Assembly (NCBI GenBank): GCA_016928855.1
Contig: JAFGKA010000039.1
Coordinates: 1-62,671, forward strand
Length of the DNA stretch: 62,671 bases
From: Phycisphaerae bacterium
Lineage (GTDB): Bacteria; Planctomycetota; Phycisphaerae; UBA1845; PWPN01
Direction of reading: 5' to 3'
Every line of letters starts with the position of its first letter. Positions within the stretch are counted from its first letter, which is position 1. Under the pieces are notes generated by a model. The model did no database searches, was not told the origin of the DNA, and saw nothing but the letters and a program-made list of their open reading frames with translations. This document shows, piece by piece, positions 10,125 through 27,817 of this stretch. Made by a program: the position numbers and the translations under genes.

Positions 10125-10615
10125 CGGTTGCGTCCTCCTCTTTCAACTGCACGACGTGCCACCTGGCGCATCGCGGGACCGCGACATGTTACCGAATCGT
10201 CACCAAAATGTCATCTGTCATCGCCGACCGGCCACACAGTGCAGCAACTGTTCCGAGGCAGACGCATGTCGCGCTTAGATCGGCGTCGAGCATGACTCAG
10301 CTTGGCGGACGAGTCGAAGCTCAGCCACTAGCGTGTTGCGCGTGCGAACGCCGCGACACGGTGCGACAGACCGCAATGAAACGCGAAGCTTGCGAAAGAT
10401 GCGAAACCGCGCTAAGGTCGTGCGAGGAACGGACTTCTGCGGTTACGGCACCGGTTGGAGAATGCGTTTCCCGGGCTGGATCCCGAGCGTCACGATAGAT
10501 TCTGCCGGCCTGACGAGCTGGACGTCACTGGCGCTAGCCACGCGCGCTCCTGCGTCTTCTGAGTGCGGAGGCAAGGTATCTGCCGACACATGTGGAGTTA
10601 CGCTGATGCTGTCCG

Positions 10616-11287
10616 TCACAGAACTCCGAACTCATTGAACACGTCCCGCAGACTGCGCCCTTCGAGCAACTCGCGACGCGACGCATTCTCCTTTCCGATC
10701 TTCTCGGCAGCCCGCTGCAACACCTCATCTTCGACGGCTTGGGGGATGACAACGATGCCATCGAAGTCCGCGAACACGAGCTCGCCCGGCTGCACGAGAA
10801 CGTCGCCGCAGCGAATCGGAACGTCGTAGGCCATCACGCGGCCGCGCCCTTTGCTGTCAAGCGGCCGGATGCCGGCGTAGAACACCGGGAAACCGATGGC
10901 CATGATCTTGCGGCAGTCTCGGATCTGGCTGTCGCAGATACAACCGACGGCACCGTTGCGCTTGGCGACGGTGCTCATCAACTCGCCCCAGGGCGCGTTC
11001 GTACCGGCGGCGTCCGTCGAGTGCACGGCCACGTCGCCCGGCTGCAACGAATCCATCGCGTCGATTTCGAGGCCGTACGGGTCATTGTCGACGTAGTCCG
11101 TCTCCATCCAGCGGAGCGTCCGCGCGCGTCCGACGATGACGCAGTGGTCCGGATCGAGCGGCCGCAGCCGCTGATGCATAGCCTGCTGACGATATCCCAG
11201 TTCGTCAAGGATATCGCACACCGCCGGAACATAGAGGTTCTGTTGTATCCACGCCAGGCGTTTCGGGCCGTCTTCGGGGAGCATCAC
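10616..11287 (-). CDS. RraA-fold protein (class II 4-hydroxy-2-oxoacid aldolase / oxaloacetate decarboxylase family)
   Basis: 223 aa. VCDILDELGY ... GTNAPWGELMSTVAKRNGAVGCICDSQIRD ... GFPVFYAGIRP. Its start overlaps the RidA stop (ATGA at 11284-11287). Confidence 0.85.
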   Translation of the reverse strand: MMLPEDGPKRLAWIQQNLYVPAVCDILDELGYRQQAMHQRLRPLDPDHCVIVGRARTLRWMETDYVDNDPYGLEIDAMDSLQPGDVAVHSTDAAGTNAPWGELMSTVAKRNGAVGCICDSQIRDCRKIMAIGFPVFYAGIRPLDSKGRGRVMAYDVPIRCGDVLVQPGELVFADFDGIVVIPQAVEDEVLQRAAEKIGKENASRRELLEGRSLRDVFNEFGVL

Positions 11288-11712
11288 GTTTCCTCCACTC
11301 GCTGCTCGCCGGCATAGGCGATCAGCTCAACCTCGTATTTCACCAGGTCGCCCAGGCAGCCAATCAGCGTCGTCCGGGCCGGGTAGGGTTCACTGAAGAA
11401 CTCGCGATAAATACGATTGTGGGCATCCCAGTCTTCCTGCCGGGCGAGATAGCAGCGCACCTGAACGACATGCGAGAAGTCCAGGCCGGCCATGCCCAGC
11501 ACGCGAGCGACGTTCTGATACGTGCGGCGGGCCTCGTTTTCAAACGTGTCAGGCACGATCCGGCCCTGCTCGTCGGCCGAGGCCATGCCGGACAGGAACA
11601 CGAAGTCGCCGACCCGCACCGCCGGCGAAAACGGTAGCGACGTCGAGAATACCGCGGGATTGCGAATGAATTGAACGGCGTCGTCAAGCATGGTCACACT
11701 CGTTCCTGCCAT
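11284..11712 (-). CDS. RidA/YjgF/UK114 family enamine/imine deaminase
   Basis: 142 aa. FSPAVRVGDFVFLSGMAS ... PARTTLIGCLGDLVKYEVELIAYA. Confidence 0.9.
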   Translation of the reverse strand: MAGTSVTMLDDAVQFIRNPAVFSTSLPFSPAVRVGDFVFLSGMASADEQGRIVPDTFENEARRTYQNVARVLGMAGLDFSHVVQVRCYLARQEDWDAHNRIYREFFSEPYPARTTLIGCLGDLVKYEVELIAYAGEQRVEET

Positions 11713-11718
11713 CTTGCA

Positions 11719-13479
11719 TCACTCGTCGGTCTTCGCCGCGGGCCTATTGACGATCTTCTCGATCGCCGCGCGAAGCCACGCCTCGTTCTTCGGAAAGTCG
11801 GCGTAGGTCTTCAACTCTGCCAACAGCGGATCGTTCGGTTTGACCCCCGCACTCTGCAGCATCGCGTAGTCCTGAAGCGATTCGGCGAAGACCTCCCAGC
11901 GAATCGAATCCAGCGGACCGTCGGGACCGGGGTAGATCATGAACGGATCGCCGTAGGGAATACTCGGCCAACATGCGTTCGTCGCGTCGTTGAACGGATC
12001 GCCGATGACTTCCTGTTCCATTTTGTGCCAGTAGTTGAAACCCCAGTGCAGGAAGCCTTTGGCGCCGAGCTGGTAGAACAGCCAGCCCGACATGCGGATC
12101 TTCGGCAGCGGCGTGTCAAAGAAACGGTTCAGCCACGGCCCGTGCGGCGCGCAGCAGTAGTAGACCCAATGCGGGATCTTCTCGTCGATATAAGCCTGGG
12201 CGGCGCTGACGATCGGGATCGGAATATCCGTCAGGTCTTGTCTGCCGTACTCGATGTCGCTCAGGGCGTCCATGACCTTCATCCACGGCGCCAGCTCGCG
12301 CAGGATCTCGCGTGCCCGGTGGTAGTTCGTGACATGCTGGCCGCTGCCCGGCTCGTCGGACAGGTGGAAATAGGACGTTTCCAGCAGGCCCTCGGTCTTG
12401 AGGAACGTATGGAATTCGGGCAGAAACTGGCGCAGGAAGTTCAGGAACGTCTCCGAAAAGCCGCTGATGTCCGGCGGCCAGAGCATGACGTACTCCTCGC
12501 CGACCTTCTTGTAGATGCGCTCGGGGTTCTCGACGCCCCAGTAGATCCACAGGTGCGACCATTCGAACTGGCGGAATCCGATCTCCTTGCACATGTCCGT
12601 GAACTGCTTCACGCGTGACCAGTCGAAGACGTACTTTCCCGGCTCGGGCTCATCGATGATCAGGAGCTGGCAGGGCCGCTTGAACGTCTCGCGGCGGTCG
12701 AAGAAGATCGGGACGTAGACCACGTCCGAACCGTGGGCAAGCATGTTCGTCAACTGGTCCTTCGTCAGCTTCCACCAACGCTCGTCGAACATGCCGGTCT
12801 TGTAGTAGTCCCACGTCGCCTCACCCCGCCACCAGTGAATGACCGGGAAGTCGCGTCGCGGCTGCAAGACCAGTCGGCCGACCTTCAGCGTCACCGGCAT
12901 TTCGAGCTGCTGCTTTCCGTCGTGGAGACTCAGCCGCACCGTGAACGTGCGCAGCCCCGGCTTCGCATCGGCCGGGATATTGAGTGTGATCCAGAACGAG
13001 CGGCTCTCGTACGGCCCGATGTTGACCTTGGGCAACGGCCACAGCGGATCGGGCACGAGCCCGGGAATGTGCCCGACGCCGTCCAGCTCGCTCGGTTCCG
13101 TGTCCGTCGTGAAATGGTGCATCGGCACGAGGCCGACGAAGCGCACCTGGGGTTTGAGATCGTCGGCGCCCTCGATCGTGCATTCGGCCACCAGCGGCCA
13201 GATGCGGTCGTTGCGGAAACCGACCTGGAACGCCGTCCTGCTGTTGCGTGCGGCCAGAAGCTCCAGTCGCGCCGCTCCGGGCTCGCTGCGCGGGAAGACG
13301 CGTTGAAGGGAACTCGCCAGCCAGGCGCTCACGCACGAGCCGGCCGGCCCGTCCTGCCGGATGATAACCGGCTCGTTCGCACCCGATGCACGAACGATCT
13401 CCTGCGCGTGCGCTGCGGCCGCCGCCACGATCAGACACACACCGCCGACGAATCCACAGCCTGTGGTCCTGCGTTGCAT
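11719..13479 (-). CDS. Secreted DUF4091 (GH123-like) glycosidase-like protein
   Basis: 586 aa. Signal peptide ending AAAAHAQE, and GAKGFLHWGFNYWH, which is characteristic of DUF4091. Confidence 0.75.
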   Translation of the reverse strand: MQRRTTGCGFVGGVCLIVAAAAAHAQEIVRASGANEPVIIRQDGPAGSCVSAWLASSLQRVFPRSEPGAARLELLAARNSRTAFQVGFRNDRIWPLVAECTIEGADDLKPQVRFVGLVPMHHFTTDTEPSELDGVGHIPGLVPDPLWPLPKVNIGPYESRSFWITLNIPADAKPGLRTFTVRLSLHDGKQQLEMPVTLKVGRLVLQPRRDFPVIHWWRGEATWDYYKTGMFDERWWKLTKDQLTNMLAHGSDVVYVPIFFDRRETFKRPCQLLIIDEPEPGKYVFDWSRVKQFTDMCKEIGFRQFEWSHLWIYWGVENPERIYKKVGEEYVMLWPPDISGFSETFLNFLRQFLPEFHTFLKTEGLLETSYFHLSDEPGSGQHVTNYHRAREILRELAPWMKVMDALSDIEYGRQDLTDIPIPIVSAAQAYIDEKIPHWVYYCCAPHGPWLNRFFDTPLPKIRMSGWLFYQLGAKGFLHWGFNYWHKMEQEVIGDPFNDATNACWPSIPYGDPFMIYPGPDGPLDSIRWEVFAESLQDYAMLQSAGVKPNDPLLAELKTYADFPKNEAWLRAAIEKIVNRPAAKTDE

Positions 13480-13493
13480 GGTCTTCTCCTACA

Positions 13494-15884
13494 TCACTGG
13501 ATCTCAACTCTCATTGTTTCGCCCGGCTTCACTTCGTGCGGACGACCGTTGATCGTGACGGCACGAAGCGCGGGCAAGGGCGGCACGTGCAACCGTACGC
13601 GTGCCGGCGCGAATCGGAATCGCGACGTGAACGATACGTCAAGGCGGCGCCCTTCGTCGGCGAGCCGGAAGCGAAGGGTGACCGGGCCATACTCGGTCGG
13701 GAGCCGCTCGAAGACCGTTTCATGATCGGTCGTCAGCCACGCGAGCGGCACGAGGCGCAACAGGTGCAGGCTGTCCGGTTCGATCTGATCATCGATCACC
13801 GAAAGCCGCGCCGCTTCGATCGTCAACGGCAGCGAAAAGAGCGTTCCGCTGATCCCGCCACGATGCTCACAGCCGATGGACGTCTGGCGAGACACCGCAC
13901 CGGTCAGCAGACTGTAGAGCCCTTCCAGAAACCGCATGCGGTCGGCCGTCTGCCACGCGTGAAAGATGTTCCAGCTATAGCACGGCTCGCAACTCGACTG
14001 CTCGTGATGCAGAGTGATTGGCTGGTGCCACGGTCCCGCGAGATCGTAGCTGCGCGTGTTGGGGCCCTCGCGGAAATAGAGCAGGCTTGATCGCATCAGC
14101 TCGTCATCCGCGTCCATCAGGCCGGCGTAGACCGCAAAGAGAGGCCCGGTGTCGAGGTAGAACGGATGTCTGACGTCCCCGCCGCCGGGCAGGGCCGTAG
14201 GAACGAAGCGGTGATGCCGACCGTCGGTGCCCTCCCATTCCGGCATATGGTCCATGGCCTCTCGCATCGCGCGAACGAACGTTTCGCGATAATCGCGTGC
14301 TTCGCGTGCGAACTCGTCGGCACGCGGATGACCGATACGCTGAAGCAACCGAACGGACGTCGCGAGCCCCTTGTAGTTCCAGCCGTCGTTCCAGACCGCC
14401 TGCTCGCGCTGACCGGTATCCGTGGCGACCGCCGCGGGCAACAGGCCTTTGACACCGTCGTGTGCATCGCTGGCGCGGAAATCGCGGATGAACTCGCATG
14501 CGAGCAGAATCGGATCGGTCCACCGCTCGATGAATTCTTTGTCGTCGCTGACGAGCGCGTGCCGCGCCGCCGCATAGAGGACCGCACCATGGTCAGACAG
14601 CCAGTCGATTGACGTCAGGATCCGCGGCGTGGCCAGGTAGCCGGGATGCTGGCGATACGCGCCGCCCGGCGGGACGATCGTGCCCTGCTCCTGCCGGAAG
14701 ATCTCGAGGTATTTGTCGGCAACGCTGTGGTAGCCGAGACCATCCAGGATCATGGTAATGTTCATCGACGTCGGCGTGGCCCACAGCATCTCGTAATTCC
14801 ACGAGCCGGAGAGCAGGCTGTACCGGCCGGTCTCGGGATGACGCTCGGCAATGACCTCCGCGAACTTGGGGCTGTGCCGGCATGCCTCGTTGATCAGCCG
14901 CTCCGGCGTGTCCACGCGCGCGGCCGTCTCGGGAACTGCGGCCCAGAAGCGACCTGCTTCCGCCAGGGCGGCGTCACGGCCCAGGTTCAACTCCGTGACG
15001 GCGACGTCCCGCTCCGCGGGAACCAGCGGCACGAGGAGATCGACATACGCGTCCTTCGTAGGCGGAAACGACAAGTGCAGATATGCATCCGATTCGTCGG
15101 GACGCTCATCGATGAAGTGAACGCGGTAATTGGTCTTTGCAGCCACCGCCAGGCGGACATTGTGGGCCTCGTCCAGCAGCAGATACGTGTCGGATGCCGG
15201 CGTCTGGGCGAGCGGCTCGAGCCGCAACGCATGCGGGTATGCAGCCATCTGTGGTTGAGCGAGGAGATTCAAATTGCGATCCATGTTGAGGCGGATGTGC
15301 GGCTGGTTGATGCGAACGAGGAAGCCGTACTGCGGAGGAGAGTCGTCTGCCGCAACCTCCGCAACCGAAAGCCGCACCCACGCGAACAGCGGCTCGCTGG
15401 AATCCTGTATCGCTCCGCCACCGGGAACATGCGCGAAGATCTCCTGGCGAAGCGTGATCTTGTCCTGGCGCCATCGCGTCCAGAGCACGGGAACAGGGCC
15501 GTCGTTCCAGCCCTGGTCACCCACGCCGCCATCGCGGTTGCGCAACTGGTACGGCTGGGTTGTGGTTGGCCGGGGAGGGACACCGTCGGACGACGGGATG
15601 AACGTCAACTGCACACCCTGGCCGCGAGCGGGCCAGCGCACCGGAGCTGCCATGAGCGTACCGTCATAGATCACATTGAACCGGAGCGGATTATCCTTCC
15701 AGCCGATTGGCGTCCACACATTCTCGAATTCCGGCCACCAACCGGCGGCAATATCGGCATTCGGCTCGGCCCGTGCGATGCTCTTGCCCGACACACGATC
15801 CACTTCCTGCGCATGTGCCGTGGTTGCGGCCATGGCTAAGCACAGACCGCGTATAAGACCACGAATCATTGCTTGGGGCTGCAT
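13494..15884 (-). CDS. Secreted large protein, six-hairpin (alpha/alpha)6 glycosidase-like, family unknown
   Basis: 796 aa. Signal peptide LCLAMAATTAHAQEV. The helical-repeat region WNYEMLWATPTSMNITMILDGLGYHSVADKYLEIFRQEQG looks like a glycoside-hydrolase barrel. No family assigned. Confidence 0.65.
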   Translation of the reverse strand: MQPQAMIRGLIRGLCLAMAATTAHAQEVDRVSGKSIARAEPNADIAAGWWPEFENVWTPIGWKDNPLRFNVIYDGTLMAAPVRWPARGQGVQLTFIPSSDGVPPRPTTTQPYQLRNRDGGVGDQGWNDGPVPVLWTRWRQDKITLRQEIFAHVPGGGAIQDSSEPLFAWVRLSVAEVAADDSPPQYGFLVRINQPHIRLNMDRNLNLLAQPQMAAYPHALRLEPLAQTPASDTYLLLDEAHNVRLAVAAKTNYRVHFIDERPDESDAYLHLSFPPTKDAYVDLLVPLVPAERDVAVTELNLGRDAALAEAGRFWAAVPETAARVDTPERLINEACRHSPKFAEVIAERHPETGRYSLLSGSWNYEMLWATPTSMNITMILDGLGYHSVADKYLEIFRQEQGTIVPPGGAYRQHPGYLATPRILTSIDWLSDHGAVLYAAARHALVSDDKEFIERWTDPILLACEFIRDFRASDAHDGVKGLLPAAVATDTGQREQAVWNDGWNYKGLATSVRLLQRIGHPRADEFAREARDYRETFVRAMREAMDHMPEWEGTDGRHHRFVPTALPGGGDVRHPFYLDTGPLFAVYAGLMDADDELMRSSLLYFREGPNTRSYDLAGPWHQPITLHHEQSSCEPCYSWNIFHAWQTADRMRFLEGLYSLLTGAVSRQTSIGCEHRGGISGTLFSLPLTIEAARLSVIDDQIEPDSLHLLRLVPLAWLTTDHETVFERLPTEYGPVTLRFRLADEGRRLDVSFTSRFRFAPARVRLHVPPLPALRAVTINGRPHEVKPGETMRVEIQ

Positions 15885-15920
15885 GGTCTTCTCCTTCGTT
15901 TCAGAATGTGGTCGATGACG

Positions 15921-18680
15921 TTACCGACCGGCATCACACCGCACCTCGAGATCCACCGGTGTGTGCAAGTCGGGCAGACGCAGCGTGTCGCCCGATACCT
16001 CGACGGCCACGCTCGGCGTTGCGGTTACTGACGCAATTGAACGCTTCTGCGGATGGCGCAGCCGCAGGCAGACCTCCATTGGCATCCGCCGCTGCGGCGG
16101 ATCGATGTGGATCCGCATCGTGTCGTCCGCCTCCGCATCAATCCGGTAGCTCATGTTCCCGAATTCCGTCGGCGCATCGTTGACGGCCACGTGCTTGCCC
16201 GGTGCGAGCCACGCACGCGGGATGCCCCGGCCGAGCCAAAGCGTGTCGTCCTGCTCGTGCAGCAGCATGTCCCGCACTAACCGGAGCTGGTCGGTGCACG
16301 AGTAGAGATGCGGCAGCGTGTAATGGTTGTGCCCTGTTCGGATGTTTGTGACCTCGACGGGCGAGTACGTGTCGCGCGTCATTCCGAACGCCAGGAACGA
16401 CCAGAACCCCAGCAGTGTCTTGCGCTCCTCGCCGCGTTTCATCGCTGTCGTGAGATAGCCATACGTGTAGGCGTGATCGATGCCCCGTTCGAACTCGCAC
16501 ACACCGGCGATGAGCCCGGCCCGCTTCTCTATGATGTCCATGAGCCTGTTCGCCCGCTTGTCGCGCGGCGGGAGAAAGCCCGTTCCCAGCAGCGGGCTGG
16601 CCACCAGCCCGTAATAGTCGCCGCCGGTGTACTTGCTGAGCTTGAGCAGCCGTTGCGTATCCGGCTCCATCGGCAGAATTGTCTGACCGTTGTCGGCAAA
16701 GGCCGCGGCATCCATCGAGTCGAGGATATCCTGGCGATACTTCGCAGCCTCGATCGCAAACGCGTCGGCCTGTTCGGCACCGATGTCCTTCAACGCGGCC
16801 CCAGAAAGCTCCAGGCCTCGCGCGCACCACACATTGCCCAGATAGTTGAACACCGGCTCGGCGTAATCGTTGTACGGCCGGAACTTGATCAGTCCGCGCG
16901 TCATACCGTCGGCCGGGCCGGCCGCGCGCTGGCGGACGAGCCACTCGCACTGCTTGATGATGCTCGGGCTCACGCGCTCCAGCCACGCGCGATCGCCGGT
17001 GAACTGGTACTGCCGGATCAAGCCAACAAGAAAGCCACCGGGATCGGTCAAGCCGCAGACCTGCGTGTACAGGCCGTCAGGTTGCTGAAAGTGAATCTGC
17101 GTATCCAGGACGCGCGCTGCATGGTCGTGCAAGCCGTACATGTTCATCGCCCACGTGTGCAGCGAGACGCTGTTGCCGAACATCTGCTCATAGAAGCCGG
17201 CGCCGTCATGCGGCTCGACGTAGCCGTCGATCGTGTCGCAGTTCAACAGCGAATAGACGATCCACGCCCGGTAAGCCTCCATCACACGGCGATCGGGCAT
17301 GTCGAACCGCTCCGCGGGCGCGAGTACGTTCCGCCAGAACGCCGCCGTCTCGACCAGCTTCGCTTCAAACGCATCGGCAGTGATCTCGCTGGCCGTCTCC
17401 GGCTGGGGATGCTTGAATCGCACGCACCACCGCGCGGAGCCGTCTCTTGCCTTGGCCGGCCATACATGCCGCGTTTCGCCGCTGCCCCAGGCCAGCGCAA
17501 GCTGTTCAGGCACGCGGCCACCGCGCGACCGCGCGGTCAGGCGGGCGTAGGCATACAGGTCCGTGTCGACACGAAACCCCTCGGATATGGCGAAGACCAT
17601 CAGTTCGTAATCAACGTCGTCACGGCTTGTGCTCAGTATCACCACCGGCAGATAGCCCGCCAGCAAGCGGCGGGTGATCGTGGCGGTCAGGCCGGGGACG
17701 AGGTGCGTCGCAGAGCGGTCCCAGGTGAAATAAGCACCGTTTCCACCCCCGAACGGCACGGGCGGATCGCCGATCTCGAACCACGCGGTCGGCGCTCCCC
17801 AGGGCGTCACGTCCAGCCGCCCAAGGCAGTCCACGCCGAGGTCCAGCGGATGCACCGGCACGCCGACGACTTCGCGCGGCGACTTCATCGGCGGATAATG
17901 GCCGGCGATCGCTTCGAACGTCGGATCGTCGTCGTTCTGCGTCAGGACCGCGTTGACCGGCTCACCCGGCGGTCGCCGCACCGCCTCGCGTTCGGCCTCG
18001 GTCAGTGTCAACACGGCGGGCGGCGTTGCCTCGATGCGCAGATCACCCACGAGACCGCTGACCTTGACGCCAGGCACATCGGCAGGGCCGCGAAACGGCT
18101 TGTGGTCGGCACCGTAGTACTTCCCGACCGCGACGCGCTTCGGCGCGCCGGCGAACGTCGTCGGCCGTTCGATCGTGCGCATGTCGATCCACTTCTCGCC
18201 GTCATGGGATTGAAGGCGAACGTGATCCTGGCCTAGTACGATGCGCACGCGGTGGGCGCAGCCGAAATCGACGCCGCGATCATCGACCTCACGAGCCTTG
18301 CCCCCAACCACGTCGATGCTGTAGAACCGGCCGAATGGCGTCGGCGAAAGCATCCCGACCCCGCACCAGTTGTCGGCATCCCACACGAGATACACGGCGC
18401 CCCATCGTACGACGGTCGCAGAGAGCGTGATGTTGTCTATGCCCAGTTGGCGTTCGATATGCCCAACGCCGTCCAGCGGCCCCTCGACGGCCAGCCAACC
18501 GTCCGTGACCTTGACGGAAGCCTCAGGCGACGCCTTGGGCGACCACGCCGCATCCAGCGTCTCCGAGGCGAAGCGTTCATGCAGCGGAAGCGCCACGTTC
18601 CCGTTGGCTACGGTTGCCGGAACCATTCCCACGCACACGGCCAGCAGCACGAGCCGTTGCAGGCCATTCGTTGCCATCAC
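15921..18680 (-). CDS. Secreted large protein, N-terminal lectin/LamG-like domain plus six-hairpin glycosidase-like domain, family unknown
   Basis: 919 aa. Signal peptide LLAVCVGMVPATVANG. The core SVSLHTWAMNMYGLHDHAARVLDTQIHFQQPDGLY ... QYQFTGDRAWLERV appears distantly similar to the 796-aa neighbour (by eye). Confidence 0.65.
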   Translation of the reverse strand: MMATNGLQRLVLLAVCVGMVPATVANGNVALPLHERFASETLDAAWSPKASPEASVKVTDGWLAVEGPLDGVGHIERQLGIDNITLSATVVRWGAVYLVWDADNWCGVGMLSPTPFGRFYSIDVVGGKAREVDDRGVDFGCAHRVRIVLGQDHVRLQSHDGEKWIDMRTIERPTTFAGAPKRVAVGKYYGADHKPFRGPADVPGVKVSGLVGDLRIEATPPAVLTLTEAEREAVRRPPGEPVNAVLTQNDDDPTFEAIAGHYPPMKSPREVVGVPVHPLDLGVDCLGRLDVTPWGAPTAWFEIGDPPVPFGGGNGAYFTWDRSATHLVPGLTATITRRLLAGYLPVVILSTSRDDVDYELMVFAISEGFRVDTDLYAYARLTARSRGGRVPEQLALAWGSGETRHVWPAKARDGSARWCVRFKHPQPETASEITADAFEAKLVETAAFWRNVLAPAERFDMPDRRVMEAYRAWIVYSLLNCDTIDGYVEPHDGAGFYEQMFGNSVSLHTWAMNMYGLHDHAARVLDTQIHFQQPDGLYTQVCGLTDPGGFLVGLIRQYQFTGDRAWLERVSPSIIKQCEWLVRQRAAGPADGMTRGLIKFRPYNDYAEPVFNYLGNVWCARGLELSGAALKDIGAEQADAFAIEAAKYRQDILDSMDAAAFADNGQTILPMEPDTQRLLKLSKYTGGDYYGLVASPLLGTGFLPPRDKRANRLMDIIEKRAGLIAGVCEFERGIDHAYTYGYLTTAMKRGEERKTLLGFWSFLAFGMTRDTYSPVEVTNIRTGHNHYTLPHLYSCTDQLRLVRDMLLHEQDDTLWLGRGIPRAWLAPGKHVAVNDAPTEFGNMSYRIDAEADDTMRIHIDPPQRRMPMEVCLRLRHPQKRSIASVTATPSVAVEVSGDTLRLPDLHTPVDLEVRCDAGR

Positions 18681-18717
18681 GCACCACGCCTTTCAATACG
18701 GGTCCTCTCGTGAGCCG

Positions 18718-21656: not shown

Positions 21657-22522
21657 TCGCTCGCCTCCGTCGTTCCTCGCGGATCCGGCAAGCCGAGCAA
21701 CGACAGAGCGTCGCGGTGAACCAGCGCCTCGATCTCTTCGGCCGGCAGCGTGAAGCGGTCGATACGAATGTCACACATCGCTCGCAAGCCGCGCACGCTC
21801 TGCTCCACCGTCGTGACGGGAAAGTCCGTGCCAAAAAGCAGCTTGTCCCATACGCCATACTCTTCGACGAGCATCAGGGTGTGGAACAGTTGCCACGGCC
21901 GGTAGAACAGCGCGCTGACGTCGGCGTAGACGTTCGCATGCTTGCGGATGACCGCGACGGTCTCGCCCTCGTACGGATGGCCCATGTGCGCCAGGACGAT
22001 CTTCACATCCGGAAACCGCCGCGCCACTTCATCGAGGTTCCGCGGCAGCGTGCACTCCAGCGGCGCCTTCGCAATGAATGTTGTTCCCGTGTGCAGCAGC
22101 ACCGGCAGGCCCTTCGCCGCCGCATAGCGCCATAACGGATCAAGTCGCTCATCCTGCGGAAGAAAGCCGGCGTACATCGGCATGAGCTTGATCCCGCGCA
22201 GCCCGAGCTGTTCGTGGCCGGTGCGTAGTTCGTCCTCCCAGCCGCTCTGCGTCGGATCGACCGACAGAAAGCCCAGCAGCCGTCGCGGATCGTGCACGAC
22301 GTAGGCGGCGACCTGTGCATCGTCCAACCAGACACCCGACAGCCGGGCCTTACCGCCGAACACGATCGTTACAACATCTTTGCCGCCGGTCGCGGCACGG
22401 TATGCCTCGTGATCGCTGACAGCCGTTGCCGCGGCCGCTCTCGTTCGCTGCGCATCAGCCAGGAACGATGCGGAGAAGCAGTCCGTACCCGGCCAGCAGT
22501 GCGCGTGGACATCCACAATCAT
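21653..22522 (-). CDS. Amidohydrolase_2-type metal-dependent hydrolase
   Basis: The family begins at MIVDVHAHCWP. That ATG (22522) overlaps the creatininase stop as ATGA, so the 41 upstream codons of the longest ORF were trimmed. Confidence 0.8.
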   Translation of the reverse strand: MIVDVHAHCWPGTDCFSASFLADAQRTRAAAATAVSDHEAYRAATGGKDVVTIVFGGKARLSGVWLDDAQVAAYVVHDPRRLLGFLSVDPTQSGWEDELRTGHEQLGLRGIKLMPMYAGFLPQDERLDPLWRYAAAKGLPVLLHTGTTFIAKAPLECTLPRNLDEVARRFPDVKIVLAHMGHPYEGETVAVIRKHANVYADVSALFYRPWQLFHTLMLVEEYGVWDKLLFGTDFPVTTVEQSVRGLRAMCDIRIDRFTLPAEEIEALVHRDALSLLGLPDPRGTTEASE

Positions 22523-23298
22523 GTTGAGCCCTCCACGCCTGGCGCATCCGGCCAGCAGCTCACGAGCAGTTCCTTGAGTGCCCCGACCGTGATGTCGAGG
22601 ATCTTGCGACCCTTCTCGGCGGTCGCCAGAGACGGTTTGCCCCACGCACCCGTCTTGGTGATCCGCTCCATCGGCACGGCGCGGCTGGCCGCGCCACCGG
22701 TCAGCAGGTCGCCCCGCATCATGGGTGACGCGGCTGGGATGCCATCGTCTTTCGCGACAGCCATATCAACGAGGTCAGGCCGCAGGGCCAGCACGACGCT
22801 GGTCTCCAGTTCGCACGCATGGCCGACGGCCGGGTAGTCACCGTCGACGAGTGGTCGCAGCCGCTCGGCCGCCACGCGGAACCAGGCCGTCGATACGACC
22901 TCGACCTCAGGCCATCGCGCTGCCGCCTGTTCGAGGACCACGCCGGCAATCGAGCTGTTGCCGCCGTGGCCGTTGAGCAACAGAAACCGACGGAATCCGT
23001 GGCGCACCGCCGCAGCCAGCGTTTCCAGCACCACACAGCGAAACGTCTCATGCGTCAGCGTGAGCGTGCCGGTGAAGGCCATATGGTGCTCACTGCAGCC
23101 GACACGCGGACCAGGCATCACAAGAAGGCGCCCGCCACAGACGGCATCGAGCCGTACGGCGAACTCGTTGATGATCAGGCTGTCAGTCATCAACGGCAGA
23201 TGCCGCCCGTGTTGCTCAACCGCGCCGAGCGGCAGAATACACACCGTCTCGCGTGATACGTCCGCCATGCGAAGGGCGCTGAGTTCTTCCCACTTCAT
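22519..23298 (-). CDS. Creatininase-fold (creatinine amidohydrolase family) hydrolase
   Basis: LPLGAVEQHGRHLPLMTD, LLLNGHGGNSS, VGHACELETSV. ATG 23298 overlaps the upstream stop (ATGA), so the longest ORF (to 23442) was trimmed. Confidence 0.85.
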   Translation of the reverse strand: MKWEELSALRMADVSRETVCILPLGAVEQHGRHLPLMTDSLIINEFAVRLDAVCGGRLLVMPGPRVGCSEHHMAFTGTLTLTHETFRCVVLETLAAAVRHGFRRFLLLNGHGGNSSIAGVVLEQAAARWPEVEVVSTAWFRVAAERLRPLVDGDYPAVGHACELETSVVLALRPDLVDMAVAKDDGIPAASPMMRGDLLTGGAASRAVPMERITKTGAWGKPSLATAEKGRKILDITVGALKELLVSCWPDAPGVEGST

Positions 23299-23786
23299 GC
23301 GTGCACCTCCAGCGGCAAATAGCCGACGAAGCCCGCGATTCGCCATTGCCCGCCGATTCGATGAAGGCGATAGAGCGTCTGCGCCGACACCTGCCATCGC
23401 TTCCCGTTTTGCAGCGGCGCATCGATCTTGAACTGTTTCCATGCCACCGCGCGGTCGGTGTGGATTTCGATGCGGTCCAGCGTAGTCAGTTCGAATAGCA
23501 GCGTCAGTCGATCGCCGACGACCGGCTTGCAGCGATACTCTTCAGCCATGTGCAGCCAGCGATCGCGATAGCCGTCAAGCGTTGGATATTCGAGCGACCA
23601 ATCCGCCGGATCCGCCGATCCGTTTGCGCTGATGCCCTCAAAACGGTCCGCCGCAAAGTCGTTCGCCACAAGCGACCAGTCGGCCGAGGCGAACGCACGG
23701 TTGTCGCGTGTAACGAGCATTTCCCAAATCGCATGCCGGTCTGGCTCGCTCGCGGCATCAAACGGATTGATCCGCTTGTCGTTCAT
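23295..23786 (-). CDS. NTF2/SnoaL-like small protein
   Basis: 163 aa. Size and pattern (IWEMLVTRDNRAF ... WRIAGFVGYLP) fit an NTF2-like fold. The call is weak. Confidence 0.5.
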   Translation of the reverse strand: MNDKRINPFDAASEPDRHAIWEMLVTRDNRAFASADWSLVANDFAADRFEGISANGSADPADWSLEYPTLDGYRDRWLHMAEEYRCKPVVGDRLTLLFELTTLDRIEIHTDRAVAWKQFKIDAPLQNGKRWQVSAQTLYRLHRIGGQWRIAGFVGYLPLEVHA

Positions 23787-24553
23787 CAGCAGCCTCCCCG
23801 GCGCTGCAGCAGCCGCGCGGCATTGCCGTAGAACACCTGCTCGGCCTCCGCCGCGGTCAGTCCGGCTTCCACCACGTCGTCAATCCGCTCGGCCAGCAGC
23901 TCCCACGTAGCCGCGCCGAAGTCGGAGCCGAACAGCACCTTATCCGCGCCGCCCGTCGCCACGAGGTGCAGCAGATCACCGCCACGCGGGCCGCAGAAAC
24001 AGGCGTACAGATTCGGCACGTCGCGGATAAGCTGTGCCGCCGCATCGACGTAGTCAGCCAGGCCGGCGTGCCCGAGGATAATCGTTGCCTCCGGCACCCA
24101 GCGAGCGACCTCGGCAACCTGAAACGTCGTGCAGTACGGCGGCGTGCCGTCGTGAAAGATCACCGGAGCGTCGTGCCGTGCGGCAACGCGCAACAGCCCG
24201 GTCATCGTTTCTTTCAGCATGCTCGGAGCGAACGCCTGCAGCCACGGATGCAACTTCACGCCGCGAAACCGCGCATCGCTCAGCCGTTGTTCCAGTTCTT
24301 CCGCCGCAGCCGGCCCGTCCTTCGGATCCACCGTCGCGAACGGAATCAGTCGGTCGGGATATCGATCGGTCTCGGTTACCAGCGCCTCATTGTGGCTCTC
24401 GCAATTGCCGTAGAACCCCATAACCGTGAAGACGCAGGAGGCTTCGACGTCGAAGCGATCCATGGCCGCGACCATGGCCTCGGCCGTCGGCAGCGGCTGC
24501 CCAAGCCAGTGCCGATCAAGGTGCGTGTGGAAGTCGATGATTCGCATGCCCAT
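23786..24553 (-). CDS. Amidohydrolase_2-type metal-dependent hydrolase
   Basis: 255 aa. MRIIDFHTHLD ... ATIILGHAG ... VLFGSDF. Confidence 0.8.
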   Translation of the reverse strand: MGMRIIDFHTHLDRHWLGQPLPTAEAMVAAMDRFDVEASCVFTVMGFYGNCESHNEALVTETDRYPDRLIPFATVDPKDGPAAAEELEQRLSDARFRGVKLHPWLQAFAPSMLKETMTGLLRVAARHDAPVIFHDGTPPYCTTFQVAEVARWVPEATIILGHAGLADYVDAAAQLIRDVPNLYACFCGPRGGDLLHLVATGGADKVLFGSDFGAATWELLAERIDDVVEAGLTAAEAEQVFYGNAARLLQRRGGC

Positions 24554-24559
24554 CCTCGC

Positions 24560-25288
24560 TCAGAGGCCAAAGAGCCGTTTGGCGTTGTCATGCAGAATAG
24601 CTCGCCGCGCGTCCTCGGCGAGGCCAAGCCGTTCCAGCGTCCGCAGGCATACCGCGTATCGATTTCGGGGTTCGGCGCTGCCAAACACAATGCGCGACGG
24701 CCCGTGCGCTGTGACGAGCGCCCGAATACCGTCGCCGATCATCATTGAGGTATCGACGTACAGGTTCGGAATCGCGGCAAACGTGCCGGGCAGATCGAAC
24801 CACATGTCGGCAAACCCGCCGAAGCCGGCGATGAACGGCGTAGCTGGCAGCCGCCGTGCTACCTCGGCGACGGCCAGCAGATCCGCGCACACGTACGTAC
24901 CCGTCCGCACCAGCACCGGCCAGCCGTATTCCGCGGCACGTTCGAACAGCGGCATCGCGATCGACTCGGTGGGCATGAACCCCTGTCGCGTTGGATCGAG
25001 AAAAAGACCGACAGCGCCGTCGTCGCGGCCGCGAGCCACGGCGTCCAACGCCTTGCCACCCCACCACGGATTGGCCGTGACCAGGCCGCGAATGCGTGGG
25101 CCGGCCTTCAGCACAAGGGCGTTGCCGGCAGCGTGATCGACGACGAGGCCCGCACCCATCGGACGTGCGATAGCCATCGTCACTTCCGCAGCGTCCATGC
25201 GTCGAAGCAATGTCTCGGCGTCGAGATGCAGGTGCGCTTCTTCGCCAAGCATCGCGTGCGCATCAATGACGGGCAGCGTATTGAGCAT
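24560..25288 (-). CDS. Amidohydrolase_2-type metal-dependent hydrolase
   Basis: 242 aa. PVIDAHAMLG ... RIVFGSAEP. The start overlaps the enolase-family gene end by 26 nt. Confidence 0.7.
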   Translation of the reverse strand: MLNTLPVIDAHAMLGEEAHLHLDAETLLRRMDAAEVTMAIARPMGAGLVVDHAAGNALVLKAGPRIRGLVTANPWWGGKALDAVARGRDDGAVGLFLDPTRQGFMPTESIAMPLFERAAEYGWPVLVRTGTYVCADLLAVAEVARRLPATPFIAGFGGFADMWFDLPGTFAAIPNLYVDTSMMIGDGIRALVTAHGPSRIVFGSAEPRNRYAVCLRTLERLGLAEDARRAILHDNAKRLFGL

Positions 25289-26381
25289 CAGGCTCCACTC
25301 CGAATCCGGGCCCGGTCGGCAACGCTACGCAGCCATCACGAAACACGATTGGCGGCGTCACCGATGAGGTTTTGTAGAACAGCGCCGCCATGAGATCGCA
25401 GGCATAGCGGTCCACCGGAAACGCCGAAAGGCTCGCGGCCAGGCAAACCATCGGCGCCAGCCCCAAGTCCGTCTCCAGGTTCGAGCCGATCGCGCAGGCC
25501 TTACCGGCGGCCTGAGCCCGCTGTGCCATCGCGATCGAATGCGTGAATCCGCCATTCTTGCCGGGATAGACCGAGAGGATGTCGAACGCGTCTTGGTCGA
25601 GTGCATCTTCGAGTTGGCCCGGTGTGAAGATACCTTCGTCGACCATGACCGGCACGCTCACTCGGCGGCGCACCTCGGCAAGCATGGCAAGTCGGTCCCG
25701 CGGCGTGGGCTGCTCCACGAGGCCAAGATCGTAGGCCAGCAACGCCTCAATCGCCCGAATAGCGTCATCCGCTGTGGGATACGCGCCGTTCGCATCGACC
25801 GTGAAGATCGGTTCTGGCCCGAGTCGTTCACGCACCGCGCGCAGCCGCGCGACGTCGTCAATGCCCGGCTTGCCGGTCTTGAATTTGAGCGTCCGCACGC
25901 CCTGGTTCCAGAACTCGACCGCGAGTGCGACAGTCTCTTCCGGCGGATAGGCGCCGATGCTCACACGTGTCGGGATCCACTCAACCGGCTCGCGATCAGC
26001 AATCAGCCTCCACACGGGTACACCCTGCATTCGGGCCCACAGGTCCCACAACGCCGCGTCCACCGCTGCCTTGGCGAAGGCGTTGCCGTGCAACTCGCCA
26101 TCGAGAATGACCAGCGCTTCCGACGGATGCTCGAACTCAGCGCCAACCAGCCGCGGCGACATGAAGTGCTCGATCATCCATTTCGCGGTTTCGGCCGACT
26201 CGCCGCTCCAGATCGGCGCGGTCGTCGCCTCGCCAAAACCTTGCAGGCCGTCGTCGCCGGTGAGCGTCACGGTCACATAGCGAGAGGCCTCATGCCGCCC
26301 GAGAAACGAGACAATCGCGCCGTTTGACCGAACGGGATGGTCGACAACCGTTGCCTCAATCTTCTGAACGCGCAGTGTCAC
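25263..26381 (-). CDS. Enolase-superfamily enzyme, muconate-lactonizing (MLE) subgroup (racemase/epimerase/cycloisomerase type)
   Basis: 372 aa. KxK in TLKFKTG, metal ligands in TVDANGAY, LVEQP and MVDEG, second catalytic Lys in YPGKNGG. The GTG start overlaps the ROK stop (GTGA at 26378-26381). Confidence 0.85.
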   Translation of the reverse strand: MTLRVQKIEATVVDHPVRSNGAIVSFLGRHEASRYVTVTLTGDDGLQGFGEATTAPIWSGESAETAKWMIEHFMSPRLVGAEFEHPSEALVILDGELHGNAFAKAAVDAALWDLWARMQGVPVWRLIADREPVEWIPTRVSIGAYPPEETVALAVEFWNQGVRTLKFKTGKPGIDDVARLRAVRERLGPEPIFTVDANGAYPTADDAIRAIEALLAYDLGLVEQPTPRDRLAMLAEVRRRVSVPVMVDEGIFTPGQLEDALDQDAFDILSVYPGKNGGFTHSIAMAQRAQAAGKACAIGSNLETDLGLAPMVCLAASLSAFPVDRYACDLMAALFYKTSSVTPPIVFRDGCVALPTGPGFGVEPDAQYAARH

Positions 26382-27604
26382 AAATTCGCCTCCGCCTCGC
26401 CAAATCGCGCACCGATCGACGGATACGCAAACAGTCGGTCCCGCGCATCAGCCGCAATGCCGAGAAACGCCGATGTCTCGCCCAGTTCGGCCAGGCGGAC
26501 CTCAATTCCCTGCAGCAACTCGCCGAGTGCGTACTCCGGCAGCGCCCGTTTGAGCGGGTCGAGCAGCAGTTCGCCGGCTTGCACGAACCGGCCTCCGAGA
26601 ATGATTCGCTCGGGGTTGAGGAGACTTACCGCATTGCCCAACCCGCGCGCGAGCGCCCGGGCCGCCTCGGCAAGAATCTCCCTCGCGCGGGCGTCGCCCT
26701 CGCGAGCCGCCTGAAGCATCTGCGTGAAATCATCGTTGGGCATCTCGCCGCGCAGCGTCACCCATTCGGCTTGTTCGGCTGGCAACTGGCGCCACCGTGC
26801 TGCGAGGCGTGCCGGTGCGACATGGGCTTCGAGGCAGCCGCGCCCCCCGCAACCGCAGGGAGGGCCATCCTCGGACACACGCGTATGTCCGATTTCTCCC
26901 GCCGAGCCGTCGCGCCCGACGAGCAGCCGGCCTCGCTCGACAATGCCGCCGCCGATCCCCTCGAGCAGCGTTACGAACAGCGCGTTCTGCGCCCCGCGCC
27001 CGGCCCCGAACGACACTTCGCCGAGGGCCTGCCAGCTATCGCCGCGTTGAATGACCGTGGGTCGGCCTGTGGCTTTGCGGAGCGCCTCGGCGACGGGTAC
27101 GTTCTGCCACCCTGGTACGTTGACCGCCCGGACCGCACCGCCGGTTGCGATATCGACGGTGCCCGGATCCGCCGCACCGACGGCCACAATTCGCACACCA
27201 AGCTTCGGGGCGGTATCGACTGCCAACGTTACCGCCCGCGCGATGCGGCGCAGTCGTCGTTGGGCATCTTCTTCGAACGGGCCGTCCCACCGCCGCTGCC
27301 ATCGAAGCGTACCGCCGAGGTCCGTCACGGCGGCGTTGATGTGGTCCTGGTCGTACTGTACGCATGCCACGCCCAGGCCCCGCAGATCAATCTCGAGCAG
27401 CGTTTGCGGCCGGCCACGGCCGTTGCCGCCCGGCGGTGCCACGACGCTTTCGCGGATCAGCCCATCGCGAAGCAACTCGCCACAGATTTCCGACAACCGC
27501 GAAATCGGCAGGCCGGTGCGATGGTGCAGACCGACGCGTGATTCCGGGCCCTCGTGAAACAGCGAGGCGCAGACGAGCAGGCGATTGTAGACCGGCTTCG
27601 TCAT
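26378..27604 (-). CDS. ROK family transcriptional regulator
   Basis: N-terminal wHTH (RVGLHHRTGLPISRLSEICGELLRDGLI), LLEGIGGGIV, zinc motif CGCGGRGCLEAH. ATG 27604 gives 408 aa. The longest ORF reaches 27715. Confidence 0.85.
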   Translation of the reverse strand: MTKPVYNRLLVCASLFHEGPESRVGLHHRTGLPISRLSEICGELLRDGLIRESVVAPPGGNGRGRPQTLLEIDLRGLGVACVQYDQDHINAAVTDLGGTLRWQRRWDGPFEEDAQRRLRRIARAVTLAVDTAPKLGVRIVAVGAADPGTVDIATGGAVRAVNVPGWQNVPVAEALRKATGRPTVIQRGDSWQALGEVSFGAGRGAQNALFVTLLEGIGGGIVERGRLLVGRDGSAGEIGHTRVSEDGPPCGCGGRGCLEAHVAPARLAARWRQLPAEQAEWVTLRGEMPNDDFTQMLQAAREGDARAREILAEAARALARGLGNAVSLLNPERIILGGRFVQAGELLLDPLKRALPEYALGELLQGIEVRLAELGETSAFLGIAADARDRLFAYPSIGARFGEAEANL

Positions 27605-27817
27605 GCGCCTGCCCTTGGGCCACCAGGCGAGGGGCGGGGCCGGGATTCGAATCGCCTTCGGCTTGCCGCGTGCCATCAGTCCTCGTTCCCGAAAATGATT
27701 CCAATTATGGAACAATTCACCATCAACGGCTCATCTGGTCAGTTAGGGCGGCCGTCATTCTGCCGTCCTGAATGAACGCAAGGTGGGAATCGGCCTTCTC
27801 GCACGCGCCGAAACCCC

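Follow-up and report, generated by a model that had tools for sequence, protein, structure and literature searches.

Amino sugars rank among the most plentiful sources of carbon and nitrogen. To our knowledge, all textbook routes for N-acetylglucosamine (GlcNAc) and N-acetylgalactosamine (GalNAc) start by phosphorylation, the ong pathway of 2022 is the only oxidative route known, and the role of RidA in it is still unexplained. The ong pathway was described by Jiang et al. 2022 (PMC9537276) as the route by which Pseudoalteromonas prydzensis uses chitin products oxidised at C1 (GlcNAc1A). Its parts are the GH20 enzyme OngA, the sodium:solute symporter (SSS) OngIT, the D-aminoacylase-fold deacetylase OngB (structure in PMC12017989), the pyridoxal 5'-phosphate (PLP)-dependent deaminase OngC, the essential RidA protein OngD, the RpiR regulator OngR and a KDG kinase, and the complete pathway is reported only in Gammaproteobacteria and one betaproteobacterium (PMC9537276). 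Here, we describe a sugar catabolic operon of 14 genes (positions 10616 to 27715, minus strand) that holds several uncharacterised protein families. It is encoded on a contig of 62,671 nt from a Phycisphaerae bacterium (JAFGKA010000039.1, assembly GCA_016928855.1), the whole of which is called the window in the following. Headed by a ROK regulator, the operon comprises genes for nine proteins of the cytoplasm and one transporter, together with three for secreted proteins of the glycosidase type. The gene order is ROK, an MLE-subgroup enolase-superfamily enzyme, two amidohydrolase_2 proteins (AH2a and AH2b), an NTF2-like protein, a creatininase-family protein, a third amidohydrolase_2 protein (AH2c), the SSS, a Gfo/Idh/MocA oxidoreductase (Gfo), the secreted proteins p919, p796 and GH123, RidA and an RraA-like protein.

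We read this locus, with a probability of roughly one half, as a catabolic operon under the control of ROK whose target is a glycan with N-acetylhexosamine (HexNAc; GalNAc or GlcNAc) in beta linkage, which would be degraded by an oxidative, non-phosphorylative route with the logic of the ong pathway but built from non-homologous enzymes. Outside the cytoplasm, GH123, p919 and p796 would trim the glycan, and the monosaccharide set free would be imported by the sodium:solute symporter. The Gfo/Idh/MocA dehydrogenase would oxidise it at C1 to a lactone, to be opened by AH2c or by the AH2a/AH2b pair. The product would be an N-acetylhexosaminate, which is chemically an N-acyl amino acid. Acetate would be removed by a metal amidase, for which the creatininase-family protein and AH2a/b are the candidates, and the MLE enzyme would abstract the C2 proton and eliminate the 3-hydroxyl, either before or after deacetylation. 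The NTF2-like protein and RidA might turn the enamine/imine into 2-keto-3-deoxy-hexonate and ammonia, and the RraA-like protein, acting as class II aldolase, would release pyruvate and glyceraldehyde without phosphorylation. We infer the substrate, the assignment of every enzyme to its step, the order of the steps and the control by ROK; enzyme roles are argued from gene context, since none of the 12 operon proteins scanned with NCBIfam (all but p919 and p796) reached the cut-off of a curated equivalog model. The earlier note had recognised no characterised pathway in this gene combination, which agrees with these scores and with the full-text literature searched, where no description was found. 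Searches on N-acetylhexosaminate/GalNAc1A catabolism, RraA-like sugar aldolases and GH123 in Planctomycetes yielded nothing relevant. The undescribed glycan or modified-sugar system proposed in the note can be narrowed to a probable oxidative amino-sugar (HexNAc) pathway.

Gene neighbourhoods were compared in 80 metagenome loci (labelled L and a number) and eight look-ups, with the neighbours scored with a protein panel. Two unrelated N-acetylhexosaminidase families are found near the NTF2-like/RidA module, GH123 in planctomycete loci and GH20 in Rhizobiales-type loci, and the NTF2-like family adjoins oxidised-amino-sugar gene sets that match ong components (cluster types C and D, described below). 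An oxidative HexNAc pathway is further favoured because NTF2::RidA fusions occur, and because the RidA arginine and the Asp-Glu pair of GH123 are kept. Further arguments for the same reading are the conservation of the operon, the NagC/Mlc-like ROK protein, the aldolase Arg-Asp pair retained in the RraA-like protein, and an MLE enzyme with intact acid/base and metal residues, whose closest solved relatives include enzymes that abstract the alpha-proton of N-acyl amino acids.

Shared with the ong pathway would be an extracytoplasmic exo-N-acetylhexosaminidase, an SSS importer, a 2-acetamido-aldonate that is deacetylated and deaminated in the cytoplasm to give a 2-keto-3-deoxy acid, and a repressor of the pathway's own. 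RidA and SSS are present in both operons as families only; OngD is essential in the ong pathway. The NTF2-like family of the window adjoins OngB-like and OngC-like genes in other bacteria. In contrast, the defining ong proteins OngA, OngB, OngC, KdgK and OngR are all absent. GH123 stands for GH20 and ROK for RpiR, and neither an OngB of the Amidohydro_1/Amidohydro_3 type nor a PLP-dependent OngC of the Ala_racemase_N/D-Ser dehydratase type or a PfkB KDG kinase was found in the operon with Pfam, OngB-like genes being confined to other architectures. The operon adds a dehydrogenase and a putative lactonase, so that oxidation would take place inside the cell, whereas it is due to a lytic polysaccharide monooxygenase in the ong pathway. 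Additional are also the MLE-type enolase, the creatininase-family amidase, the NTF2-like protein and the RraA-like aldolase. By analogy, the operon would work like the ong pathway without being a member of it.

L-Fucose and L-rhamnose can be degraded non-phosphorylatively by a dehydrogenase, an amidohydrolase_2 lactonase, an enolase-superfamily dehydratase and an aldolase. The operon would follow the same order of chemistry, with dehydrogenase, Amidohydro_2 lactonase and enolase-superfamily dehydratase drawn from the same superfamilies and with a pyruvate-forming aldol end. It differs in that its enolase belongs to the MLE subgroup and not to the MR-type acid-sugar dehydratases, and in that its aldolase is RraA-like and not of the HpcH or DHDPS type. 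RidA, the NTF2-like protein and the extra amidase point to a nitrogen-bearing substrate. The polysaccharide utilisation loci of Bacteroidota resemble the region in that extracytoplasmic glycosidases, uptake and downstream catabolism are combined in one regulated locus amid sulfatases and large carbohydrate-binding proteins. However, a SusC/SusD pair was not found among the open reading frames (ORFs) of the window scanned with Pfam, and the operon is tightly packed as a single unit that includes the cytoplasmic pathway.

All 14 ORFs are located on the minus strand, and neighbours overlap or sit at most 37 nt apart. The positions of the ORFs and the largest gap given in the earlier note were confirmed by an ORF check, by reading every junction directly from the sequence and by gene calling on the public source contig (Logan SRR13394437), which independently recovered the same 14 genes. 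Overlaps are present at 8 of the 13 junctions: GTGA between ROK and MLE (26378-26381, minus strand, as for all junctions), 26 nt between MLE and AH2a (25263-25288), TGATG between AH2b and NTF2 (23784-23788), ATGA at 23295-23298, 22519-22522 and 21653-21656, TAGTG between SSS and Gfo (19741-19745), and the overlap of RidA and RraA at 11284-11287. The latter had been noted as ATGA, but the coding strand shows GTGA here (GTGATG over 11287-11282). Gaps of 6, 37, 36, 14 and 6 nt make up the other five junctions, namely AH2a/AH2b and the four around the genes of the three secreted proteins. The linkage of all genes by overlapping start and stop codons described in the note thus applies to eight junctions and not to the cassette of secreted proteins, whose genes are separated by short gaps and carry their own ribosome-binding sites. 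GGAG(G)-like motifs were found upstream of most start codons. In four genes the true start likely makes the gene shorter than the longest ORF: ROK (ATG 27676 instead of TTG 27715), creatininase (ATG 23298), AH2c (ATG 22522) and AH2b (possibly ATG 24547), for which the gene caller gave lengths of 432, 259, 289 and 253 amino acids (aa), respectively. Tight gene packing alone is ordinary in a high-GC operon; this one is lifted above chance because its gene order is conserved in other genomes. Downstream of RraA, a non-coding gap of 491 nt follows (10125-10615), in which no terminator-like hairpin was detected in a simple scan.

A sigma-70-like promoter (27841 to 27869, minus strand; TTGACG-17 nt-TATTTT with TG), recognised by consensus match only, heads the operon. 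Placed before ROK, it is the only promoter-like match that the coding strand has inside the operon or upstream of it, the total count in the region being at chance level; a second minus-strand match lies downstream of RraA. A similar sequence (TTGACA-17-TATCTT) is located upstream of ROK in the orthologous locus L018. Terminator-like hairpins are fewer within the operon than expected by chance, and no RNA elements were found in it with Rfam and tRNA scans. Because the only upstream or internal promoter match on the coding strand stands before ROK and internal terminators are not in excess, we infer a single transcript for all 14 genes. The palindrome TTCCA-N4-TGGAA (at most one mismatch) is present three times in the window, compared to 0.95 expected, and two of the three copies are found in the 244-bp region upstream of ROK. 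Both are probable ROK operators. The first (TTCCAGAATTGAAA, 27830 to 27843) overlaps the -10/start region of the operon promoter and a divergent promoter-like site, the second (TTCCAATTATGGAA, 27699 to 27712) is an exact match to the palindrome just upstream of the ROK start codon. Related AT-rich motifs precede ROK in L006, L018 and L004. The ROK protein itself (26378 to 27676, minus strand, longest ORF to 27715; 432 aa; Pfam ROK 1e-49) is NagC/Mlc-like. NagC/Mlc profiles align with residues ~54-424, the N-terminal DNA-binding part included, at 141-148 bits compared to cut-offs of 530-650. It would most naturally be read as an autoregulated, sugar-responsive repressor. The divergent promoter-like site (27818-27845), which overlaps operator 1, belongs to a gene for a secreted protein of 1165 aa (27920 to 31417, plus strand) with CBM9 and a weak GH76/GH127-like region (Pfam). 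This gene is possibly co-regulated with the operon and may belong to the same unit; the neighbour is not conserved in L006 or L094.

Import is assigned to the sodium:solute symporter (19743 to 21656, minus strand; 637 aa; Pfam SSF 6e-33; TIGR00813), orthologues of which (73-76% identity) are encoded at the same position in relatives. The Gfo/Idh/MocA protein (18718 to 19743, minus strand; 341 aa; Pfam GFO_IDH_MocA) is an NAD(P)-dependent oxidoreductase with an EKP motif and GSHVID, and is proposed by analogy to act as sugar C1 dehydrogenase. The three amidohydrolase_2 proteins differ in the PF04909 signature of active enzymes (HxH, two histidines, C-terminal aspartate), which is found in AH2b and AH2c and not in AH2a; in the PDB search, they matched only uncharacterised or remote decarboxylase entries. 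In AH2a (24560 to 25288, minus strand; 242 aa; overlapping the MLE gene by 26 nt), nearly all metal-binding and catalytic residues are lost in all four orthologues compared (window, L013, L094 and L026). HxH is changed to HxM or HxA and the final aspartate to A or E, and the two later histidines are replaced (by R and F), the strand-5 one being R in three of the four and kept as H in L026. AH2a is always encoded directly upstream of the intact AH2b (23786 to 24553, minus strand; 253-255 aa), in which HxH, both histidines and the aspartate are conserved and for which only remote PDB relatives were found. Judged from these residues, AH2a is probably a non-catalytic pseudoenzyme subunit of a heteromer, with AH2b as the likely partner. 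AH2c (21653 to 22522, minus strand; 289 aa; Pfam 5e-35) has conserved metal ligands and is the candidate lactonase; its nearest solved relative is the uncharacterised BB4693. The creatininase-family metal amidohydrolase (22519 to 23298, minus strand; 259 aa; Pfam Creatininase 4e-64) is a candidate N-deacetylase. It scored below the cut-off with all NCBIfam models, i.e. creatininase (99 of 235 bits), MftE (116 of 172, the best match) and IolN (71 of 245).

The MLE-subgroup enzyme (25263 to 26381, minus strand; 372 aa; Pfam MR_MLE_N and C) is proposed, by analogy, to use a 2-amino or 2-acylamino aldonate as its substrate, either as a dehydratase/deaminase or as a 2-epimerase. Its closest solved relatives are the L-Ala-D/L-Glu epimerase YkfB, muconate cycloisomerases and N-acylamino acid racemases, and 3,6-anhydro-L-galactonate cycloisomerase is also among its PDB relatives. 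Aligned to YkfB, the protein keeps the KxK of strand 2, the Asp/Glu/Asp metal ligands and the lysine of strand 6 (LKFKTG, VDAN, VEQP, VDEG, PGKNGG), which we take to have the roles of the matched YkfB residues. The ammonium-binding DxD segment of YkfB (FDFD) reads YACD, so that the dipeptide-epimerase motif is missing. NCBIfam epimerase models gave 71-95 bits (cut-offs 343-500), while the muconate/chloromuconate cycloisomerase model TIGR02534 scored best with 190 bits, below its cut-off of 335. The RidA-family enamine/imine deaminase (11284 to 11712, minus strand; 142 aa; Pfam Ribonuc_L-PSP 2e-21) is a divergent member of its family, judged from 68.9 bits with TIGR00004 (cut-off 106). A PARTT motif with a conserved arginine is present in the protein of the window and in its orthologues; this arginine (Arg105 in E. 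coli RidA) marks imine-hydrolysing RidA proteins. The last gene product, the RraA-like protein (10616 to 11287, minus strand; 222-223 aa; Pfam RraA-like 1e-35), is proposed as a class II pyruvate aldolase/decarboxylase on the analogy of the HMG/CHA aldolase 3NOJ, of which it keeps the Arg-Asp pair (IRD compared to VRD), the GD of 3NOJ being changed to GE. LigK/PcmE models scored 80-95 bits (cut-offs 179-304). PRK08245 is the best NCBIfam subfamily for both this protein and the one encoded in the type-B locus described below.

Among the secreted proteins, GH123 (11719 to 13479, minus strand; 586 aa with signal peptide) is expected to be a beta-N-acetylhexosaminidase. The Pfam GH123_cat profile matched at 1.2e-87 over 322 of 324 positions, and an HLSDEP motif with an Asp-Glu pair is conserved across three GH123 orthologues. 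In GH123 and GH20 enzymes, this pair serves a substrate-assisted mechanism that needs a 2-acetamido sugar. The two other secreted proteins, p919 (15921 to 18680, minus strand; 919 aa) and p796 (13494 to 15884, minus strand; 796 aa), had neither a Pfam match nor a sequence match in the PDB, and represent two novel families. AlphaFold (AF2) models built from 32-sequence alignments (pLDDT 89 for p919 and 90.8 for p796) predict two beta-sandwiches, an (alpha/alpha)6 barrel and a further beta-sandwich for p919, and a beta-sandwich and an (alpha/alpha)6 domain for p796. With Foldseek, p919 matched GH78, GH95, GH63, GH15, GH94 and BT_1020 best, and p796 matched GH95, GH116, GH52 and GH94; identity to these (alpha/alpha)6 glycosidases is about 10% and the TM score 0.3-0.5. 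The models thus support the glycosidase-like character that the earlier note had assigned to all three secreted proteins, for p919 and p796 at the level of the predicted fold and without membership of a known family. The family calls made there for the other proteins were borne out by Pfam, except for the NTF2-like one. All 91 homologues of p919 (in Planctomycetota and Verrucomicrobiota) are annotated as hypothetical, and all 187 of p796 (in Planctomycetota, Phycisphaerae, Armatimonadota and Acidobacteriota) are unnamed. The two proteins are distant paralogues (24% identity over ~500 aa, E 3e-19). Invariant acidic residues are located in the barrel of p919 (D491, D545, D604, D734, E775 and E808), and in p796 these are E328, D489, E524, E628, E633, E673 and D698/D699. 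A protein of 1511 aa (P0198) contains a p919-family protein fused to a divergent polysaccharide deacetylase domain (PF04748) and PF25778, which hints at an action of the p919 family on N-acetylated polymers. The signal sequences of the three proteins, read by eye, are of the basic-hydrophobic-AxA type. Those of p796 and GH123 are alike and both end in AHAQE, and the translation-initiation stretch AGGAGAAGACCATGCA is identical in p796 (15884-15899) and GH123 (13479-13494), which suggests a duplicated 5' end. From the varying presence and arrangement of the three genes among relatives, we take them to be a separable cassette that was inserted between Gfo and RidA; at exactly those junctions, overlapping codons give way to short gaps.

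The NTF2-like protein (23295 to 23786, minus strand; 163 aa) is the marker of the conserved module. It has no Pfam match, and weak, sub-threshold DUF4440/SnoaL matches were obtained with some members of its family. The family is compact, with 317 representatives at E <= 1e-3 among 1.84 billion sequences and with invariant N7, R17, D28, D43 and K117; fusions to RidA (NTF2::RidA) are frequent. In P0371 and P0375, an AraC-type helix-turn-helix domain either precedes or follows the NTF2-like domain in the same protein, and the latter probably is the ligand-sensing part of a transcription factor. The family is located in amino-sugar-acid clusters of four recurrent architectures. Type A is the planctomycete operon as in the window. 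Type B, on marine contigs, consists of RraA-SDR-MLE-NTF2::RidA-creatininase-SSS standing alone among housekeeping genes, and carries the same subfamilies as the cytoplasmic module of the window. Type C, on Rhizobiales-like contigs including Sinorhizobium fredii, is GH20-SDR-RpiR-RidA / NTF2-MlrC with or without a D-Ser-dehydratase-like gene. In type D, genes for an ABC transporter, Gfo, a D-aminoacylase-like Amidohydro_3 protein, a D-Ser-dehydratase-like protein, a lactonase and IclR accompany NTF2. Types C and D contain recognisable parts of the ong pathway, and the dehydrogenase and lactonase of type D point to oxidation of the free sugar. A compact type-B example is found in L032 (6610-13095), where (SDR)-RraA-SDR-MLE-NTF2::RidA-creatininase-SSS is surrounded by housekeeping genes and lacks a glycosidase; type-B-like operons were seen in about 15 more loci (L033-L037, L039, L041, L043, L048, L057, L065, L068, L080 and L092). 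In S. fredii (L007, CP137017.1, 3081-11988) and some 25 similar loci, the cluster MFS-MlrC-GH20-SDR-RpiR-RidA / NTF2-MlrC(-D-Ser-dehydratase-like) resembles an ong-type cluster, with homologues of the M81 (MlrC) peptidase taking the place of the deacetylase OngB; no characterisation of it was found in the literature searched.

For the co-occurrence counts, the 36 metagenome loci were used that extend at least 4 kb to either side; as the contigs are related, the counts describe a pattern and are no statistical test. None of the 36 has both MLE (8 loci) and the OngC-like deaminase (12 loci), and none has both creatininase (7 loci) and the MlrC-type peptidase (23 loci). The eight loci with MLE contain creatininase and RidA in seven cases each and RraA and SSS in six cases each. 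A sugar-type dehydrogenase is encoded near NTF2 in most loci (SDR in 32, Gfo in 19 of 36). The mutually exclusive pairs suggest non-orthologous replacement, with MLE in place of the PLP deaminase, creatininase/AH2 in place of OngB or MlrC, and the RraA-like aldolase in place of kinase and KDPG aldolase.

Conservation of the gene order outside the window was confirmed in other Planctomycetota, with 56-78% protein identity. The 10.9-Mb planctomycete contig of GCA_003427375.1 (locus L013) carries ROK-MLE-AH2-AH2-NTF2-Creat-AH2-SSF-Gfo-p919-GH123-RidA-RraA at these identities, without p796. Beyond its RraA gene, a histidinol-dehydrogenase-family gene and an SDR gene are encoded (15708-17817), both absent from the window; their products could process the aldehyde product of the aldolase. 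The metagenome contigs L014 and L018 repeat this order, L018 without creatininase. Creatininase and AH2c are variably present in L016, L017 and L020, with AH2c absent from the latter two. The cultured Aquisphaera insulae has an 11-gene operon (ROK...Gfo-RidA-RraA) without a glycosidase inside, in which the NTF2-like protein is 59% identical to that of the window. A p796 homologue (45% identity) is encoded convergently just downstream of this operon, and another one adjoins the operon in L004. In a metagenome-assembled genome of PLA4, p796-p919-(415 aa)-GH123 form a unit of their own, divergent from a ROK homologue. A scan of the genome collection for p919 retrieved four loci, two of which, in Singulisphaera, carry p919 alone without the operon (57-58% identity to p919 of the window). 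These identities, and the 59% of the NTF2-like protein of A. insulae, would suggest an Isosphaeraceae-like planctomycete. In the distant locus L026, too, the core is found together with a p919-like gene. Altogether, conservation of the operon extends to at least four planctomycete loci besides the window, and the cassette is located between Gfo and RidA in the window, in GCA_003427375.1 and in L018. The unit is composite and modular, consisting of an 11-gene cytoplasmic and transport core and the glycosidase cassette.

Family content alone would also allow a uronate/aldarate route, possibly for an N-acetylhexosaminuronic acid, which we consider unlikely. Here, the dehydrogenase would form an aldaro-lactone, an amidohydrolase_2 protein would isomerise or open it, the MLE protein would act as lactone cycloisomerase to give a keto-deoxy-aldarate, and the RraA-like protein would cleave this to pyruvate and tartronate semialdehyde. 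The scheme mirrors the Udh-Gli-Gci triad, which is said to have been described in Agrobacterium in 2012 and 2014. The families of the dehydrogenase, amidohydrolase_2 and MLE-type genes found together in the operon correspond to the dehydrogenase Udh, the amidohydrolase_2 lactone isomerase Gli and the MLE-type cycloisomerase Gci. The best NCBIfam model of the MLE protein, a muconate/chloromuconate cycloisomerase, and the presence of a sugar-acid enzyme, 3,6-anhydro-L-galactonate cycloisomerase, among its PDB relatives fit this route. It is also in accord with sulfatases nearby, which would suit a glycosaminoglycan-like polymer with uronic acid, and with the relationship of the RraA-like protein to 3NOJ, as known aldolases of this kind act on dicarboxylic 4-hydroxy-2-oxo acids. 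However, the Agrobacterium pathway is not known to include a counterpart of GH123, creatininase, the RraA-like protein, the NTF2-like protein or RidA, and a uronate route leaves RidA, the NTF2::RidA fusions and creatininase unexplained, as well as the mutual exclusion of MLE and PLP amino-acid deaminase and the association with OngB/OngC-like genes. Moreover, uronate dehydrogenase, polysaccharide lyase and unsaturated glucuronyl hydrolase families were not detected in the operon with Pfam.

Improbable, too, is a nitrogen-containing substrate other than a sugar, such as an N-acyl amino acid or a D-amino-acid peptide, which would be processed by the MLE protein as racemase/epimerase and by creatininase and AH2 proteins as amidases; RidA and RraA would finish the keto acid, and the glycosidase cassette would be a later, loose insertion. 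The solved structures nearest to MLE, a dipeptide epimerase and N-acylamino acid racemases, suggest such a substrate, yet the YACD sequence replaces the ammonium-binding segment of YkfB. The creatininase family includes the peptidase MftE, its best NCBIfam match, MlrC-type peptidases stand in for creatininase in related clusters, and the best equivalog matches of the symporter are PutP and PanF. By contrast, a sugar-type dehydrogenase is encoded in nearly all loci, lactonase, sugar ABC or GH20 genes lie near the same NTF2 family elsewhere, and the regulator is NagC/Mlc-like. The marine seven-gene module without a glycosidase among housekeeping genes and the A. insulae operon without internal glycosidases agree with a loose insertion of the cassette, against which stands the linkage of the same three glycosidase families to the operon in five independent arrangements.

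It is still less probable that two or three abutting transcription units (ROK to Gfo, glycosidase cassette, RidA-RraA) were mistaken for one functional unit. The absence of the cassette from the A. insulae operon, its divergent arrangement in the PLA4 genome, the solitary p919 in Singulisphaera and, at the cassette junctions, gaps of 37, 36, 14 and 6 nt that have Shine-Dalgarno motifs of their own instead of overlaps would be expected in this case. Nevertheless, the cassette occupies the same Gfo/RidA site in three loci, no internal promoter-like site and no excess of terminators was found, and the core is joined by a p919-like gene in the distant locus L026 as well; if the cassette were its own unit, RidA-RraA downstream of it would lose their promoter. 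The inositol pathway of Thermotoga (IolN with a Gfo-type dehydrogenase) was set aside, as IolN is the weakest creatininase-family match (71 compared to 245 bits) and IolE/IolO-type genes were not found. The lower pathway of protocatechuate 4,5-cleavage (LigC as Gfo, LigI/LigJ as amidohydrolase_2, LigK as RraA-like protein) was rejected in view of the lack of a dioxygenase/PrpF-type gene, the low LigK scores and the glycosidase context.

Several observations weigh against an oxidative HexNAc pathway. The steps are assigned by analogy, as indicated by the equivalog scores. Orthology of the Gfo of the window to that of the amino-sugar cluster L009 was dropped, since only the Rossmann domain aligns, and C1 specificity is left unsupported by this comparison. 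The MLE enzymes of the planctomycete (type A) and marine (type B) clusters are only 26% identical. Some window-like loci lack creatininase or AH2c, whose roles may be accessory. Because fusions to an AraC DNA-binding domain exist, the NTF2-like domain may bind a pathway metabolite rather than act as an enzyme. In L048, a PfkB kinase is encoded beside RraA, which fits a phosphorylative end, and known RraA-like aldolases (HMG/CHA aldolase) prefer 4-carboxy substrates. Finally, the co-occurrence counts come from related contigs, which are not independent samples. A more far-reaching version of the HexNAc pathway is put forward as a tentative possibility. In this version, the MLE enzyme would take the place of a PLP enzyme in an alpha,beta-elimination, possibly on the N-acetylated acid to give an enamide, with the NTF2-like protein as a partner of RidA in handling the enamine or imine. 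The amidases or lactonases of the sugar acid would be the AH2 heteromer, with one inactive and one active subunit, and the creatininase-fold enzyme, an RraA-fold aldolase would act last, p919 and p796 would found two glycoside hydrolase families, and the whole would be a HexNAc route, so far unknown, free of phosphorylation.

Outside the operon, the window contains five genes with a sulfatase domain (37178-42667 and 43070-44725, minus strand; 48571-50961 and 56708-57976, plus strand; 60333-61880, minus strand). One of the gene products is a fusion protein of 1829 aa with a GH76/GH127-like (alpha/alpha)6 region, the weak signature of which is also seen in the 1165-aa protein (27920-31417). Directly after the gene of this divergent CBM9 protein, an ORF of 1887 aa (31454-37117, plus strand) is located, in which a malectin domain is the sole Pfam match. 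An OprB-family carbohydrate-selective porin (46875-48335, plus strand), the only candidate for outer-membrane uptake in the window, is encoded next to an AraC-type regulator (45597-46610, minus strand). Sulfatases, porin, AraC regulator and the giant CBM9, malectin and GH76-like proteins fit an island for foraging on sulfated glycans. Two tandem paralogues with DUF1254 and DUF1214 each (4879-6444 and 6449-7999, plus strand) are found downstream of a TetR/EthR-type regulator (3642-4670), and a tRNA-Gly (CCC; 58204-58275, minus strand) is the only RNA gene detected in the window.

If the HexNAc reading is true, Planctomycetota, and many marine bacteria by means of the seven-gene type-B module, would use a second oxidative route for amino sugars that is not homologous to the ong pathway. 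An NTF2-like family of unknown function would gain a role and RidA a physiological partner, and the range of reactions of the enolase, creatininase and RraA folds would be wider. The reading is directly testable, as the core operon is present in the cultured A. insulae. With p919 and p796, two candidates for new glycoside hydrolase families would be identified.

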